Source of the DNA: Escherichia coli
GTDB taxonomy: Bacteria > Pseudomonadota > Gammaproteobacteria > Enterobacterales > Enterobacteriaceae
Strand: one strand, 5' to 3'
Assembly: GCF_003018255.1 (NCBI RefSeq)
Contig: NZ_CP027440.1
Length of the DNA stretch: 64,000 bases
The notes under the pieces are model-generated. The model saw only the letters and a list, made by a program, of their open reading frames with translations, made no database searches and was not told the origin of the DNA. The first letter of the stretch is position 1. Each line of letters starts with the position of its first letter. Positions 7,421 to 14,876 of the stretch are shown piece by piece. Made by a program: the position numbers and the translations under genes.

Positions 7421-9007
7421 TCAGCTTTTCAGCCGCCGCCAGAACGTCGTCCGGCTGATACCTAAATAATTCGCCGCTGCTGTTTTATCGCCATTAAATT
7501 TTTCCAGTGCCTGTTGTGCTGTCAGCAAGCCTGGAATGGGAGTCTTCGCCGACTCGCGTGCCAGTTCCGGCAGTAGCAGCTGCAAAAATTGCGGCGTTAA
7601 ATCCGGCGTCGATTCCACACTTAAAAACAGCGCCAGTCGTTCCATCATATTGCGCAGTTCACGAATATTGCCCGGCCAGTCGTAGTGCACCAGCATGGTT
7701 TCGCTTGCCTGTAACCCCTGGCGTAATGCGGCAGCAAACGGGGCGGAGAGCGCCGCCAGAGACACTTTCAAAAAGCTTTCCGCCAGCGGCAGAATATCCG
7801 CCACCCGCTCGCGCAGTGGTGGCAATTGCAGACGCAAAATACTCAGCCGATAAAACAGATCACGGCGAAACTGCCCTTGCCGCATATCTTCTTCCAGATT
7901 GCAGTGAGTGGCGCTAATGATTCGCACATCCACCGGAACAGGCTGATGCCCGCCGACGCGGGTGACCTCTTTTTCTTCCAGCACCCGCAGCAGCCGAGTC
8001 TGCAACGGCAGCGGCATTTCGCCTATCTCGTCAAGAAACAGCGTGCCACCGTGGGCGATTTCGAACAGCCCGGCGCGACCTCCGCGTCGCGAGCCGGTAA
8101 ACGCCCCTTCCTCATAGCCAAACAGCTCCGCTTCCAGCAGCGATTCGGCAATCGCTCCGCAGTTGACGGCAACAAACGGATGCGACTTTTTGCCCTGTCG
8201 CGCATCGTGGCGGGCAAAATATTCCCGATGAATCGCCTGGGCCGCCAGCTCTTTGCCCGTCCCCGTTTCCCCCTCAATCAACACCGCCGCACTGGAGCGG
8301 GCATACAGCAAAATAGTCTGCCGCACCTGTTCCATCTGTGGTGATTGACCGAGCATATCGCCCAGCACGTAACGAGTACGCAGGGCGTTACGGGTAGCAT
8401 CGTGAGTGTTATGGCGTAACGACATGCGCGTCATATCCAGCGCATCGCTGAACGCCTGGCGCACGGTGGCGGCGGAATAGATAAAAATTCCGGTCATTCC
8501 GGCTTCTTCTGCCAGATCGGTAATCAGCCCCGCGCCGACCACCGCTTCGGTGCCGTTGGCTTTCAGCTCGTTAATCTGCCCGCGCGCGTCTTCTTCGGTA
8601 ATGTAGCTACGTTGATCGAGGCGCAAATTAAAGGTTTTTTGAAACGCCACCAGTGCCGGAATAGTTTCCTGATAAGTGACAACGCCGATAGAAGAGGTGA
8701 GCTTTCCGGCTTTTGCCAGAGCCTGTAACACATCGTAGCCGCTCGGTTTAATCAAAATAACCGGCACTGACAGGCGACTTTTAAGATATGCGCCGTTAGA
8801 GCCAGCAGCGATGATGGCGTCGCAGCGTTCGTTTGCCAGTTTTTTGCGGATGTAGGTCACCGCTTTTTCAAAGCCAAGCTGAATAGGGGTGATATTCGCC
8901 AGGTGATCAAACTCGAGACTGATATCGCGAAACAGCTCGAACAGCCGCGTTACAGATACCGTCCAGATCACCGGTTTGTCGTCATTCAGCCGTGGTGGAT
9001 GTGCCAT
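7421..9007 (-). CDS. prpR: sigma54-dependent transcriptional activator of the propionate operon
   Basis: 528 aa from ATG at 9005-9007 (N-terminus MAHPPRLND); central AAA+ domain ([14 protein letters not shown]) and C-terminal HTH; track ORF extends 4 codons further upstream. Confidence 0.95.
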
Positions 9008-9050
9008 AGCGCACCGCAAAGTTAAGAAACCGAATATTGGGTTTAGTCTT

Positions 9051-9107
9051 GTTTCATAATTGTTGCAATGAAACGCGGTGAAACATTGCCTGAAACGTTA
9101 ACTGAAA
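9051..9107. promoter_or_regulatory. enhancer-like repeats: inverted repeat GTTTCAT-N9-ATGAAAC followed by three further TGAAAC direct repeats at 10-12 bp spacing
   Basis: Seen in sequence between prpR and the prpB sigma54 promoter; consistent with an activator (PrpR) upstream binding region. Confidence 0.5.
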
Positions 9108-9183
9108 CGCATATTTGCGAATTACTTCATGACTATATTGCTAACAAATTGAAATTAAACATTTAATTTTATTCAGTCAATTG

Positions 9184-9198
9184 TGGCACACCCCTTGC
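9184..9198 (+). promoter_or_regulatory. sigma54 (-24/-12) promoter of prpBCDE: TGGCAC-N5-TTGC
   Basis: Exact match to the sigma54 consensus spacing, 48 bp upstream of the prpB ATG and divergent from prpR. Confidence 0.8.
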
Positions 9199-9245
9199 TT
9201 TGTGTTTATCAACGCAAATAACAAGTTGATAACAAAGGATGGGCT

Positions 9246-10136
9246 ATGTCTCTACACTCTCCAGGTAAAGCGTTTCGCGCTGCACTGTCTAAAGAAAATC
9301 CATTGCAGATTGTTGGCACCATCAACGCTAACCATGCGCTGCTGGCGCAGCGTGCCGGATATCAGGCAATTTATCTCTCCGGCGGTGGCGTGGCGGCAGG
9401 GTCGCTGGGGCTGCCCGATCTCGGTATTTCTACTCTTGATGACGTGCTGACAGATATTCGCCGTATCACCGACGTTTGTTCGCTGCCGCTGCTGGTGGAT
9501 GCGGATATCGGTTTTGGTTCTTCTGCTTTTAACGTGGCGCGCACCGTGAAATCGATGATTAAAGCCGGTGCGGCAGGATTGCATATTGAAGATCAGGTTG
9601 GTGCGAAACGCTGCGGTCATCGTCCGAATAAAGCGATCGTCTCGAAAGAAGAGATGGTGGATCGGATCCGCGCGGCGGTGGATGCGAAAACCGATCCTGA
9701 TTTTGTGATCATGGCGCGCACCGATGCGCTGGCGGTAGAGGGGCTGGATGCGGCGATTGAGCGTGCGCAGGCCTATGTTGAAGCGGGTGCCGAGATGTTG
9801 TTCCCGGAGGCAATTACCGAACTCGCCATGTACCGCCAGTTTGCCGATGCGGTGCAGGTGCCGATCCTCGCCAACATCACCGAATTTGGCGCAACACCGC
9901 TGTTTACCACCGACGAATTACGCAGCGCCCATGTCGCAATGGCGCTGTACCCACTTTCAGCGTTCCGCGCCATGAACCGCGCCGCTGAGCATGTCTACAA
10001 CGTCCTGCGTCAGGAAGGGACGCAGAAAAGCGTCATCGACACCATGCAGACCCGCAACGAGCTGTACGAAAGCATCAACTACTACCAGTACGAAGAGAAG
10101 CTCGACGACCTGTTTGCCCGTGGTCAGGTGAAATAA
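9246..10136 (+). CDS. prpB: 2-methylisocitrate lyase
   Basis: 296 aa; PEP-mutase/isocitrate-lyase family; first gene of the prp operon. Confidence 0.95.
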
Positions 10137-10165
10137 AAACGCCCGTTGGTTGTATTCGACAACCG

Positions 10166-10256
10166 ATGCCTGATGCGCCGCTGACGCGACTTATCAGGCC
10201 TACGAGGTGAACTGAACTGTAGGTCGGATAAGACGCATAGCGTCGCATCCGACAAC
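10166..10256. repeat. REP pair (BIME) in the prpB-prpC intergenic region
   Basis: gcctgatgcgccgctgacgcgacttatcaggcctac ... gtaggtcggataagacgcatagcgtcgcatccgaca palindromes. Confidence 0.8.
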
Positions 10257-10295
10257 AATCTCGACCCTACAAATGATAACAATGACGAGGATAAT

Positions 10296-11465
10296 ATGAG
10301 CGACACAACGATCCTGCAAAACAGTACCCATGTCATTAAACCGAAAAAATCGGTGGCGCTTTCTGGCGTTCCGGCGGGCAATACGGCGCTCTGCACCGTG
10401 GGTAAAAGCGGCAATGATTTGCATTACCGCGGCTACGACATTCTTGATCTGGCGGAACATTGCGAATTTGAAGAAGTGGCGCATCTGCTGATCCACGGCA
10501 AACTGCCGACCCGTGACGAACTCGCCGCCTACAAAACGAAACTGAAAGCCCTGCGCGGTTTACCGGCTAACGTGCGTACCGTGCTGGAAGCCTTACCGGC
10601 GGCGTCACACCCGATGGATGTTATGCGCACCGGCGTTTCCGCGCTCGGCTGCACGCTGCCAGAAAAAGAGGGGCATACCGTCTCTGGCGCGCGGGATATT
10701 GCCGACAAACTGCTGGCGTCACTTAGCTCGATTCTTCTCTACTGGTATCACTACAGCCACAACGGCGAACGCATTCAGCCGGAAACCGATGACGACTCCA
10801 TCGGCGGTCACTTCCTGCATCTGCTGCACGGCGAAAAGCCGTCGCAAAGCTGGGAAAAGGCGATGCATATTTCGCTGGTGCTGTACGCCGAACACGAGTT
10901 TAACGCCTCCACCTTTACCAGCCGGGTGATTGCGGGCACCGGCTCTGATATGTATTCCGCGATTATTGGCGCGATTGGTGCACTGCGCGGGCCGAAGCAC
11001 GGCGGGGCGAATGAAGTGTCGCTGGAGATCCAGCAACGCTACGAAACGCCGGACGAAGCCGAAGCCGATATCCGCAAGCGGGTGGAAAACAAAGAAGTGG
11101 TCATTGGTTTTGGTCATCCGGTTTATACCATCGCCGACCCGCGTCATCAGGTGATCAAACGTGTGGCGAAGCAGCTCTCGCAGGAAGGCGGCTCGCTGAA
11201 GATGTACAACATCGCCGATCGCCTGGAAACGGTGATGTGGGAGAGCAAAAAGATGTTCCCCAATCTCGACTGGTTCTCCGCTGTTTCCTACAACATGATG
11301 GGCGTTCCCACCGAGATGTTCACCCCACTGTTTGTTATCGCCCGCGTCACCGGCTGGGCGGCGCACATTATCGAACAACGTCAGGACAACAAAATTATCC
11401 GTCCTTCCGCCAATTATGTTGGACCGGAAGACCGCCAGTTTGTCGCGCTGGATAAGCGCCAGTAA
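10296..11465 (+). CDS. prpC: 2-methylcitrate synthase
   Basis: 389 aa citrate-synthase family protein. Confidence 0.95.
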
Positions 11466-11498
11466 ACCTCTACGAATAACAATAAGGAAACGTACCCA

Positions 11499-12950
11499 AT
11501 GTCAGCTCAAATCAACAACATCCGCCCGGAATTTGATCGTGAAATCGTTGATATCGTCGATTACGTGATGAACTACGAAATCAGCTCCAAAGTAGCCTAC
11601 GACACCGCACATTACTGCCTGCTCGACACGCTCGGCTGCGGTCTTGAAGCTCTCGAATACCCAGCCTGTAAAAAACTGCTGGGGCCAATTGTCCCCGGCA
11701 CCGTCGTACCTAACGGCGTGCGCGTCCCCGGAACTCAGTTCCAGCTCGACCCCGTCCAGGCGGCATTTAACATCGGCGCGATGATCCGTTGGCTCGATTT
11801 CAACGATACCTGGCTGGCGGCGGAGTGGGGGCATCCTTCCGACAACCTCGGCGGCATTCTGGCAACGGCAGACTGGCTTTCGCGCAACGCGGTCGCCAGC
11901 GGCAAAGCGCCGTTGACCATGAAACAGGTGCTGACCGCAATGATCAAAGCCCATGAAATTCAGGGCTGCATCGCGCTGGAAAACTCCTTTAACCGCGTCG
12001 GCCTCGACCACGTTCTGTTAGTGAAAGTGGCTTCCACCGCCGTGGTCGCCGAAATGCTCGGCCTGACCCGCGAGGAAATTCTCAACGCCGTTTCGCTGGC
12101 ATGGGTAGACGGACAGTCGCTGCGCACCTATCGTCATGCACCGAACACCGGCACGCGTAAATCCTGGGCGGCGGGCGATGCCACTTCCCGCGCGGTACGT
12201 CTGGCACTGATGGCGAAAACGGGCGAAATGGGTTACCCGTCAGCCCTGACTGCGCCTGTGTGGGGCTTCTACGACGTCTCCTTCAAAGGTGAATCGTTCC
12301 GCTTCCAGCGCCCGTACGGTTCTTACGTCATGGAAAATGTGCTGTTCAAAATCTCCTTCCCGGCGGAGTTCCACTCCCAGACGGCAGTTGAAGCAGCGAT
12401 GACGCTCTATGAACAGATGCAGGCAGCAGGCAAAACGGCGGCAGATATCGAAAAAGTGACCATTCGCACCCACGAAGCCTGTATTCGCATCATCGACAAA
12501 AAAGGACCGCTCAATAACCCGGCAGACCGCGATCACTGCATTCAGTACATGGTGGCGATCCCGCTGCTATTCGGGCGCTTAACGGCGGCAGATTACGAGG
12601 ACAACGTTGCGCAAGATAAACGCATTGACGCCCTGCGCGAGAAGATCAATTGCTTTGAAGATCCGGCATTTACTGCTGACTACCACGACCCGGAAAAACG
12701 CGCCATCGCCAATGCCATTACCCTTGAGTTCACCGACGGCACACGATTTGAAGAAGTGGTGGTGGAGTACCCAATTGGTCATGCTCGCCGCCGTCAGGAT
12801 GGTATTCCGAAACTGGTCGATAAATTCAAAATCAATCTCGCGCGCCAGTTCCCGACTCGCCAACAGCAGCGCATTCTGGAGGTTTCTCTCGACAGAACTC
12901 GCCTGGAACAGATGCCGGTCAATGAGTATCTCGACCTGTACGTCATTTAA
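11499..12950 (+). CDS. prpD: 2-methylcitrate dehydratase
   Basis: 483 aa MmgE/PrpD family protein. Confidence 0.95.
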
Positions 12951-12989
12951 GTAAACGGCGGTAAGGCGTAAGTTCAACAGGAGAGCATT

Positions 12990-14876
12990 ATGTCTTTTAG
13001 CGAATTTTATCAGCGTTCGATTAACGAACCGGAGAAGTTCTGGGCCGAGCAGGCCCGGCGTATTGACTGGCAGACGCCCTTTACGCAAACGCTTGATCAC
13101 AGCAATCCGCCGTTTGCCCGTTGGTTTTGTGAAGGCCGAACCAACTTGTGTCACAACGCTATCGACCGCTGGCTGGAGAAACAGCCAGAGGCGCTGGCGC
13201 TGATTGCCGTCTCTTCGGAAACAGAAGAAGAGCGCACCTTTACCTTTCGTCAGCTGCATGACGAAGTGAACGCGGTGGCCTCAATGTTGCGTTCATTGGG
13301 TGTGCAGCGTGGCGATCGGGTGCTGGTGTATATGCCGATGATTGCCGAAGCACATATTACCCTGCTGGCTTGCGCGCGCATTGGCGCTATTCACTCGGTG
13401 GTGTTTGGGGGATTTGCCTCGCACAGCGTGGCGGCGCGAATTGATGATGCTAAACCGGTGCTGATTGTCTCGGCTGATGCCGGAGCGCGCGGTGGCAAAA
13501 TCATTCCCTATAAAAAATTGCTCGACGATGCGATAAGTCAGGCGCAGCATCAGCCGCGCCACGTTTTACTGGTGGATCGCGGACTGGCGAAAATGGCGCG
13601 CGTCAGCGGGCGGGATGTCGATTTCGCGTCGTTGCGCCATCAACACATCGGCGCGCGGGTGCCGGTGGCATGGCTGGAATCCAACGAAACCTCCTGCATT
13701 CTCTACACCTCCGGCACGACCGGCAAACCTAAAGGTGTGCAGCGTGATGTCGGCGGATATGCGGTGGCGCTGGCGACCTCGATGGACACCATTTTTGGCG
13801 GCAAAGCGGGCGGCGTGTTCTTTTGTGCTTCGGATATCGGCTGGGTGGTAGGGCATTCGTATATCGTTTACGCGCCGCTGCTGGCGGGGATGGCGACTAT
13901 CGTTTACGAAGGATTGCCGACCTGGCCGGACTGCGGCGTGTGGTGGAAAATTGTCGAGAAATATCAGGTTAGCCGCATGTTCTCAGCGCCGACCGCCATT
14001 CGCGTGCTGAAAAAATTCCCTACCGCTGAAATTCGCAAACACGATCTTTCGTCGCTGGAAGTGCTCTATCTGGCTGGAGAACCGCTGGACGAGCCGACCG
14101 CCAGTTGGGTGAGCAATACGCTGGATGTGCCGGTCATCGACAACTACTGGCAGACCGAATCCGGCTGGCCGATTATGGCGATTGCTCGCGGTCTGGATGA
14201 CAGACCGACGCGTCTGGGAAGCCCCGGCGTGCCGATGTATGGCTATAACGTGCAGTTGCTCAATGAAGTCACCGGCGAACCGTGTGGCGTCAATGAGAAA
14301 GGGATGCTGGTAGTGGAGGGGCCATTGCCGCCAGGCTGTATTCAAACCATCTGGGGCGACGACGACCGCTTTGTGAAGACGTACTGGTCGCTGTTTTCCC
14401 GTCCGGTGTACGCCACTTTTGACTGGGGCATCCGCGATGCTGACGGTTATCACTTTATTCTCGGGCGCACTGACGATGTGATTAACGTTGCCGGACATCG
14501 GCTGGGTACGCGTGAGATTGAAGAGAGTATCTCCAGTCATCCGGGCGTTGCCGAAGTGGCGGTGGTTGGGGTGAAAGATGCGCTGAAAGGGCAGGTGGCG
14601 GTGGCGTTTGTCATTCCGAAAGAGAGCGACAGTCTGGAAGACCGTGAGGTGGCGCACTTGCAAGAGAAGGCAATTATGGCGCTGGTAGACAGCCAGATTG
14701 GCAACTTTGGCCGCCCGGCGCACGTCTGGTTTGTCTCGCAATTGCCAAAAACGCGATCCGGAAAAATGCTGCGCCGCACGATCCAGGCGATTTGCGAAGG
14801 ACGCGATCCTGGAGATCTGACGACCATTGATGATCCGGCGTCGTTGGATCAGATCCGCCAGGCGATGGAAGAGTAG
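12990..14876 (+). CDS. prpE: propionyl-CoA synthetase
   Basis: 628 aa acyl-CoA synthetase with AMP-binding motif YTSGTTGKPKG. Confidence 0.95.
   Translation: MSFSEFYQRSINEPEKFWAEQARRIDWQTPFTQTLDHSNPPFARWFCEGRTNLCHNAIDRWLEKQPEALALIAVSSETEEERTFTFRQLHDEVNAVASMLRSLGVQRGDRVLVYMPMIAEAHITLLACARIGAIHSVVFGGFASHSVAARIDDAKPVLIVSADAGARGGKIIPYKKLLDDAISQAQHQPRHVLLVDRGLAKMARVSGRDVDFASLRHQHIGARVPVAWLESNETSCILYTSGTTGKPKGVQRDVGGYAVALATSMDTIFGGKAGGVFFCASDIGWVVGHSYIVYAPLLAGMATIVYEGLPTWPDCGVWWKIVEKYQVSRMFSAPTAIRVLKKFPTAEIRKHDLSSLEVLYLAGEPLDEPTASWVSNTLDVPVIDNYWQTESGWPIMAIARGLDDRPTRLGSPGVPMYGYNVQLLNEVTGEPCGVNEKGMLVVEGPLPPGCIQTIWGDDDRFVKTYWSLFSRPVYATFDWGIRDADGYHFILGRTDDVINVAGHRLGTREIEESISSHPGVAEVAVVGVKDALKGQVAVAFVIPKESDSLEDREVAHLQEKAIMALVDSQIGNFGRPAHVWFVSQLPKTRSGKMLRRTIQAICEGRDPGDLTTIDDPASLDQIRQAMEE

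Follow-up and report, generated by a model that had tools for sequence, protein, structure and literature searches.

The 238 bp at 9008–9245, between the divergent start codons of prpR (CAT, 9005–9007) and prpB (ATG, 9246), very probably form the control region of the propionate (2-methylcitrate cycle) genes, with positions 9051–9108 as the PrpR enhancer that drives the sigma-54 promoter PprpB. Alignment with orthologous spacers indicates that the tandem direct repeat within this enhancer is specific to Escherichia and results from a rearrangement of the PrpR site closer to the promoter. Positions refer to the window, that is, the whole stretch of 64,000 nucleotides of Escherichia coli DNA that was analysed. 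The analysis covers sequence anatomy, orthology, conservation and recurrence across lineages; sigma-54 binding, the dependence on PrpR, 2-methylcitrate, IHF and CRP, and the sufficiency of the segment are taken from the literature.

The sequence-only reading had assigned this locus to prpR-prpBCDE, and this assignment held: the prpR ATG at 9007, on the minus strand, is divergent from the prpB ATG at 9246. The gene order is yahO-prpR / prpB-prpC-prpD-prpE-codBA (Table 1). The PrpR protein showed, in Pfam, a PrpR_N sensor domain, which matches PDB 2PJU, together with the AAA+ domain Sigma54_activat (PF00158), AAA_lid and HTH_8. The Walker A motif was found at residue 246, GAFTGS at residues 301–306, and the recognition helix at residue 517, near the C terminus. 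The adjacent prpR thus encodes the cognate enhancer-binding protein, with the sigma-54 interaction domain (AAA+, with a GAFTGA-type motif).

Table 1. Coordinates of the features of the prpR-prpBCDE locus in the window.
Feature	Position	Strand	Basis
prpR, sigma-54-dependent activator	7421–9007	-	ORF; RefSeq annotation of the 99.8%-identical genome H1; Pfam domains; motifs
Distal wide dyad GTTTCAT-N10-ATGAAAC, putative PrpR half-sites at registers 0 (inverted) and +18	9051–9074	.	Repeat finder; gapless 20-locus alignment
TGAAAC, register +28, Escherichia-specific	9079–9084	+	Alignment
TGAAAC, register +40, right half retained from the ancestral tight dyad GTTTCATGAAAC	9091–9096	+	Alignment; published consensus CGTTTCATGAAACG
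TGAAAC, register +52, exact half-site in Escherichia	9103–9108	+	Alignment
A+T-rich (76%) spacer from enhancer to promoter, presumed bending/looping segment	9109–9183	.	Composition; SNP-rich within E. coli
Weak CRP-like match TGCGA-N6-TCATG, 7/10	9116–9131	.	Consensus scan; polymorphic in E. coli
IHF-like site TTTCAATTTGTTA, one mismatch to WATCAANNNNTTR	9142–9154	-	Consensus scan; conservation
Sigma-54 promoter PprpB, TGGCAC-N5-TTGC	9184–9198	+	Consensus match; orthologous Salmonella site; K-12 gSELEX peak
Leader inverted repeat TTATCAAC-N11-GTTGATAA	9206–9232	+	Repeat finder; RNA fold; conservation
prpBCDE operon	9246–14876	+	ORFs; annotation of H1
prpB	9246–10136	+	ORF; H1 annotation
prpC	10296–11465	+	ORF; H1 annotation
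prpD	11499–12950	+	ORF; H1 annotation
prpE	12990–14876	+	ORF; H1 annotation

The region was matched in 5219 of 5426 complete E. coli genomes, where it is annotated as prpR and prpB. Over the control region (8900–9350), just 8–9 of the 5426 genomes were at least 99% identical, most being 95–99% identical and 298–723 of them 90–95% identical; the scarcity of close matches indicates that the window comes from an uncommon E. coli lineage. Some E. coli strains carry a frameshifted or truncated prpR (Ecol_448; hit H50). In addition, the gap between prpB and prpC (10137–10295) measures 159 bp and includes two REP-like palindromic units, gcctgatgcgccgctgacgcgacttatcaggcctac and taggtcggataagacgcatagcgtcgcatccgaca. 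The same gap has 44 bp in the closest genome, H1, and is presumably much longer in K-12. From these differences in length, the prpB-prpC spacer appears to vary through REP/BIME insertion.

The promoter element TGGCACACCCCTTGC lies on the plus strand 48 bp upstream of the prpB ATG, with the GG at 9185–9186 and the GC at 9197–9198, and it is the single match to TGGCAC-N5-TTGC in the window. At least one such match appeared in 25 of 100 shuffles, so the sequence match alone is weak evidence. The -24/-12 element that had been proposed at this position was nevertheless corroborated by its Salmonella orthologue, TGGCATAGCCTTTGCTTT, on which sigma-54 was located by ChIP-chip, with 45-fold rpoN dependence (PMC3844500 Table 3); the Salmonella loci recovered here carry that same sequence. 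An RpoN holoenzyme gSELEX peak has been reported as well in the K-12 prpR/prpB spacer (PMC8743547). Transcription is predicted to start near 9210. A simple scan of 8950–9300 for a sigma-70 promoter of prpR gave nothing above threshold.

The leader between this promoter and prpB contains an inverted repeat with 8-bp arms, whose RNA hairpin has a folding energy of -7.7 kcal/mol (z = -2.1) and which includes a perfect IHF consensus, TATCAACTTGTTA, at 9219–9231 on the minus strand. The repeat is kept in Escherichia, Citrobacter, and Kluyvera and is degenerate in Salmonella. Candidate roles for it are as a stem in the mRNA or as a site for a protein beyond the transcription start.

Upstream of the promoter, five exact hexamers were found, GTTTCA at 9051–9056 and TGAAAC at 9069–9074, 9079–9084, 9091–9096, and 9103–9108, with start-to-start steps of 18, 10, 12, and 12 bp. 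They are located 76–133 bp upstream of the -24/-12 element, at about -159 to -102 with respect to the predicted start, so that GTTTCA/TGAAAC half-sites are present within 100–160 bp upstream of PprpB. Clustering of these hexamers is far beyond chance. Along the whole window, TGAAAC showed no overall enrichment (42 copies found vs. 37 expected). However, none of 1000 dinucleotide-preserving shuffles of the window reached five copies within 60 bp, the maximum being four, attained once, and no shuffle in 1000 produced a same-strand cluster of four. TGAAAC is also the sole hexamer with at least four non-overlapping same-strand copies within 45 bp in the window.

Most of what the sequence-only reading had described in this array was confirmed, with corrections to its geometry. 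A GTTTCAT/ATGAAAC pair is indeed followed by three more TGAAAC copies at 10–12 bp (at 9079, 9091, and 9103; steps 10, 12, and 12), although the repeat finder placed 10 nt, instead of the nine described, between the inverted arms (9051–9057 and 9068–9074). It also reported a second inverted pair, TGTTTCA/TGAAACA, with 22 nt between arms. The location of the copies on one helical face is no more than approximate: assuming 10.5 bp per turn, phases of 0, 343, 34, and 86 degrees were obtained for the four direct copies, and every 12-bp step shifts the phase by about 50 degrees, which rules out binding strictly to one face. Finally, contacts with multiple PrpR protomers are a reasonable reading of the array, as TGAAAC is a half-site of the published PrpR enhancer consensus. 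A review of enhancer-binding proteins in Salmonella gives this consensus as CGTTTCATGAAACG and the signal as 2-methylcitrate (PMC4987338 Table 1, citing Palacios and Escalante-Semerena 2004), and the hexamer of the window is exactly one half of it.

The possibility that the solo TGAAAC copies have cryptic dyad partners was considered and discarded. By eye, the six bases 5' of each copy matched GTTTCA at 2, 0, 3, and 3 of 6 positions, which is about chance level. In the absence of an upstream partner above chance, the classical reading of one dimer on each dyad does not fit the three promoter-proximal copies. A count of six half-sites, one per protomer of a hexamer, was rejected too. The weak sixth copy that it would require, GTTTAG at 9041–9046, is kept in most enterobacteria but is cut off in a functional promoter part (PPrp, described below), and exact copies range from four to seven in other lineages. 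In the same area, between the prpR start codon and the array, we observed an 18-bp near-palindrome, AAACCGAATATTGGGTTT, at 9027–9044, which includes a conserved GGTTTAG and the one-mismatch half-site AGAAAC. Being outside the published PPrp part, it is more likely tied to prpR expression.

Orthologous spacers for comparison were collected through a genome scan with PrpR and through exact-protein look-ups, the latter providing those of Kluyvera, C. koseri, C. amalonaticus, and E. marmotae. The set also comprised seven other E. coli lineages, among them K-12, O157:H7, APEC O1, and B7A, and loci recovered by scanning metagenomes for a dyad of the Salmonella type with a sigma-54 element after it. 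Exact PrpR identity assigned five of these metagenomic loci to Salmonella enterica, including subsp. arizonae. Of the 33 metagenome pattern matches, 10 were beside neither prpR nor prpB (e.g., L098, beside a MacB/FtsX gene) and were treated as unrelated.

Twenty enterobacterial enhancers could be aligned without gaps, taking the first GTTTCA as register 0. All 20 loci showed GTTTCA at 0 and TGAAAC at +40, and TGAAAC was also present at +18 in all of them except Kluyvera (TAAAAC). At +34, Salmonella, several Citrobacter species, and the enterobacterium L121 carry a GTTTCA that forms the tight dyad GTTTCATGAAAC with the +40 copy; this dyad was counted in all 14 aligned non-Escherichia Enterobacteriaceae, with the left half reading GTTTTG in Kluyvera. 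In contrast, the Escherichia loci (coli, marmotae, and albertii) have ATTGCC or AGTGTC at +34 (ATTGCC at 9085–9090 in the window) and so lack the left half of the tight dyad. The contiguous 14-bp dyad CGTTTCATGAAACG is therefore not found in E. coli, where the aligned position reads CATTGCCTGAAACG. Register +28 is TGAAAC in Escherichia, except for TGAAAT in E. albertii, and the copy is absent from Salmonella, Citrobacter, and Kluyvera. Register +52 is an exact TGAAAC in Escherichia and TGACAC in all the aligned Enterobacteriaceae of other genera. The number of exact hexamers is thus four plus TGACAC in the ancestral layout and five in Escherichia.

As the tight dyad GTTTCATGAAAC is found in Photorhabdus too, it is the ancestral state, with the fourfold direct repeat derived in Escherichia. 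There, the tight dyad lost its left half, and new exact half-sites appeared at +28 and +52 that keep register with the conserved +18 and +40 copies. The TGAAAT of E. albertii suggests that the +28 copy may be dispensable. An origin of this copy through a small inversion was discarded, as its flanking bases show no similarity to the inverted ancestral segment. Regarding the distance between enhancer and promoter, values of 93, 103–104, and 115 bp are suggestive of helical phasing for some genera, but the 118 bp of Salmonella and C. koseri led us to reject it as a general rule. In addition, the inner spacer of the distal dyad (9058–9067, TAATTGTTGCAA), especially TGTTGCAA, is nearly invariant across Enterobacteriaceae, as the half-sites are. 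The invariance of TGTTGCAA suggests a second, overlapping signal, which could be the CRP site that has been reported, part of a prpR promoter, or additional contacts for PrpR.

Variation within the species points to purifying selection on the array. Among eight E. coli lineages, one of 72 array positions was variable, compared with 15 of the 73 positions of the spacer next to it (Fisher p = 2.6e-4); the single variable position lies outside the hexamers, none of which varied. For the genus Escherichia, the corresponding figures were 6 of 72 and 28 of 73. The prp spacer outside the array is unusually polymorphic among E. coli genomes.

A functional counterpart of the segment is available in the literature. 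With PrpR supplied from a separate promoter, E. coli PprpB gave a 59-fold response to propionate (PMC9452892). The PPrp part used begins with gtcttGTTTCA, so that 5 bp precede the first GTTTCA, and it extends into the leader (PMC9452892 supplement), which is equivalent to 9046–9236 of the window. This part consists of the array, the spacer, and the -24/-12 element, so these together are sufficient for the propionate response. The conservation of the array and the sufficiency of PPrp argue for the tandem copies being working parts and not debris.

Analysis of PrpR loci beyond Enterobacteriaceae revealed that clusters of TGAAAC/GTTTCA also adjoin the PrpR orthologues of Photorhabdus and Burkholderiales, which are 58–62% identical. 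All the PrpR proteins compared, those of distant loci included, share the recognition helix ISRTT(L/F)WR(R/K)L, which explains the common half-site; the helix has an F/L difference, with ISRTTLWRRLK as one of its forms. An Oxalobacteraceae MAG showed GTTTCA, GTTTCA, and then four TGAAAC at steps of 10, 10, and 11 bp, and a Burkholderiaceae MAG showed two inverted and three direct copies. The Rugamonas locus contains GTTTCAaaaTGAAAC with a further TGAAAC 11 bp on, and that of Photorhabdus has GTTTCT, GTTTCA, and GTTTCATGAAAC at 11-bp steps, with a TGAAAC 22 bp beyond. Finally, a metagenomic PrpR_N-PAS-AAA-HTH_8 paralogue located by a PEP-mutase gene is accompanied by seven exact copies, including three in direct orientation spaced by 11-bp steps. 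The number of exact copies varied from four to seven among the loci examined. Same-orientation steps were mostly of 10–12 bp, with a minority of 7–8 bp, and the usual plan places inverted copies on the prpR side, direct ones on the prpB side, and a central inverted pair between them. The direct-repeat layout had been regarded as unusual for an enhancer; it indeed departs from the two-dyad plan of Salmonella and Citrobacter, but it recurs in these other PrpR loci, so a direct-repeat enhancer is not odd for the PrpR family.

Some of these distant loci differ in the genes associated with the cluster. In L106 and L107 (Ga0153920_1006042 and Ga0181519_10001058), the 681-aa PrpR_N-PAS-AAA-HTH_8 regulator is divergent from a PEP_mutase/ICL-family gene whose product is only 40% identical to PrpB, and the seven exact GTTTCA/TGAAAC hexamers of the enhancer include TGAAACGTTTCA and GTTTCATGAAACGTTTCA. 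The regulator looks like a PrpR paralogue that would control a different lyase with the same DNA code. In the loci of two Massilia PrpR orthologues (L006 and L008), a GTTTCA...TGAAAC cluster faces a gene for a small membrane protein (product starting with MHDDMVQKIKSDPNYRKLV...) and not prpB, and neither locus gave a canonical -24/-12 match. In L008, prpB is located some 2.4 kb farther along. The first gene of the regulated unit seems to be different in Massilia.

In the mechanism that we consider very probable, the HTH_8 domains of PrpR bind the GTTTCA/TGAAAC hexamers at 9051–9108 and 2-methylcitrate lifts the inhibition exerted by the PrpR N-domain, allowing the AAA+ ring to assemble on or beside the array. 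The bent A+T-rich spacer, probably with IHF, would bring the ring to the closed sigma-54 complex at 9184–9198, and ATP hydrolysis would open the promoter for prpBCDE. We infer that each hexamer is contacted by one PrpR HTH and that the array helps oligomer assembly. A broader proposal, which we consider tentative and less likely than not to be right, is that PrpR-type proteins read solitary half-sites with single HTH units, largely regardless of orientation, the enhancer being an evolvable array with about one site per protomer and not a set of fixed dimer dyads. If so, Escherichia would have swapped the inverted +34 copy for a direct one at +28, and TGACAC for TGAAAC at +52, with activation kept. 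This would document compensatory half-site turnover inside a bacterial sigma-54 enhancer, and the same-orientation steps of 10–12 bp that recur in unrelated lineages would reflect the tethered DNA-binding domains of the ring reaching successive turns.

The spacer between the array and the promoter is where IHF-like matches were found. That at 9142–9154 varies across the genus Escherichia only at its N positions, and its location in a 76% A+T spacer fits the ihf requirement reported for Salmonella prpBCDE in the title of Palacios and Escalante-Semerena 2000 (cited in PMC4987338 and PMC3844500). No comparable match to the simple consensus WATCAANNNNTTR was found in the Salmonella spacer. Two further suggestions of the sequence-only reading, that an IHF or a CRP site overlaps the array, were not supported by the consensus scans: IHF-like matches were located at 9142–9168 and in the leader instead, with none within 9051–9108, and CRP-like matches (TGTGA-N6-TCACA) inside the array did not exceed 6/10, a noise level. 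The best CRP match, 7/10, lies outside it at 9116–9131, and 1.4 matches of that quality are expected per 238 bp.

The scans also bear on whether the tandem TGAAAC copies could be operators for CRP, Cra/FruR, or IHF that overlap or replace the PrpR contacts. The Cra/FruR consensus half-site is likewise TGAAAC, and a match to RSTGAAWCSNTHHW with one mismatch covers the last hexamer (9101–9114). For CRP, a site overlapping the PrpR operator is mentioned in a statement of PMC9452892 that cites Lee et al. 2005, and TTTCA-N6-TTGCA, inside the distal dyad, matches the CRP consensus at 6/10. However, Cra-like matches occur in the window at chance frequency (15 found vs. 12.9 expected) and that in the array covers one copy only, CRP-like matches with 3–4 mismatches are expected 1.4–8.4 times per 238 bp, and the array lacks an IHF consensus. 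As the hexamer travels, moreover, with PrpR orthologues into Burkholderiales, we consider this explanation highly improbable and rejected all three proteins as the cause of the repeat, given that their matches inside the array are at noise level. Even less credit, practically none, is due to an origin of the array by chance or slippage with no regulatory meaning. In its favour, TGAAAC is not enriched window-wide, but the size of the cluster was reached in none of the 1000 shuffles, conservation of the array extends over the genus and its register agrees with that of the outgroups, and the unequal steps (10, 12, and 12) and unrelated sequences between copies argue against slippage. The shuffles, the alignment, and the conservation effectively refute it.

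A more serious competitor is that only the distal dyad (9051–9074) works in E. coli, the three downstream TGAAAC being decayed remnants or neutral by-products. This dyad is the sole element common to all the aligned Enterobacteriaceae (with TAAAAC at +18 in Kluyvera), E. albertii tolerates TGAAAT at +28, and the left half of the proximal dyad has truly been lost in Escherichia. Against this, the copies at +28 and +52 are exact in Escherichia and not in the outgroups, and they keep the same register, which resembles compensation and not decay; besides, all the hexamers are invariant in the eight E. coli lineages while the adjacent spacer gathers SNPs. Palacios and Escalante-Semerena reportedly footprinted, in 2004, two dyad-symmetric sites in Salmonella, the promoter-proximal one being of higher affinity. 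Loss of the site so described should hurt activation, yet E. coli PprpB is strongly inducible. We therefore regard a function limited to the distal dyad as unlikely and favour the whole array as the PrpR enhancer.

The prp switch is an already known and well-studied system, in use as a propionate-inducible expression system and biosensor, and the lineage-specific twist described here is small. The modestly new point concerns the consensus dyad published for Salmonella, which is missing in Escherichia and replaced there by tandem half-sites, a layout also seen at distant PrpR loci. PprpB of E. coli performs well despite the missing dyad, and genome scans for PrpR sites with CGTTTCATGAAACG would miss the proximal sites of E. 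coli. In minimising PprpB for synthetic biology, the units to consider would be individual hexamers and not a dyad. Turnover of half-sites with function retained would, if confirmed, neatly illustrate the flexibility of enhancer grammar in bacteria.

The multi-site organisation has well-known counterparts. At glnAp2, NtrC, a protein with a Fis-type HTH, acts from more than 100 bp upstream by contacting the sigma-54 polymerase through DNA looping, and several adjacent sites promote oligomer assembly. PrpR shares with it the AAA+ and HTH_8 domains. However, NtrC sites are 17-bp dyads that take one dimer each, whereas three of the five exact half-sites of E. coli prp have no recognisable dyad partner. 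Similarly, NorR acts at norVW of E. coli through three GT-N7-AC sites, all of them needed for oligomer assembly. In both the norVW and prp cases, a multi-site enhancer is located in the divergent spacer between regulator and operon, the regulator senses a ligand and is not phosphorylated, and there are roughly as many sites as protomers in the active ring. In contrast to the inverted repeats that make up the NorR sites, PrpR half-sites vary in number, with four to seven exact copies.

The closest known system is the PprpBCDE promoter of Salmonella enterica with its PrpR enhancer (Horswill and Escalante-Semerena 1997; Palacios and Escalante-Semerena 2000, 2004). Both species have a divergent prpR-prpBCDE arrangement, a sigma-54 -24/-12 promoter, the GTTTCA/TGAAAC half-site, the same PrpR recognition helix, and an identical distal dyad, GTTTCAT-N10-ATGAAAC, which includes the inner TGTTGCAA, with an A+T-rich spacer further on. 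In Salmonella, the tight dyad CGTTTCATGAAACG occupies +33 to +46 and TGACAC is found at +52, whereas Escherichia carries ATTGCC where the left half would be, together with exact TGAAAC copies at +28 and +52, which results in four direct copies. The +40 site is 93 bp from the promoter in Escherichia vs. 118 bp in Salmonella.
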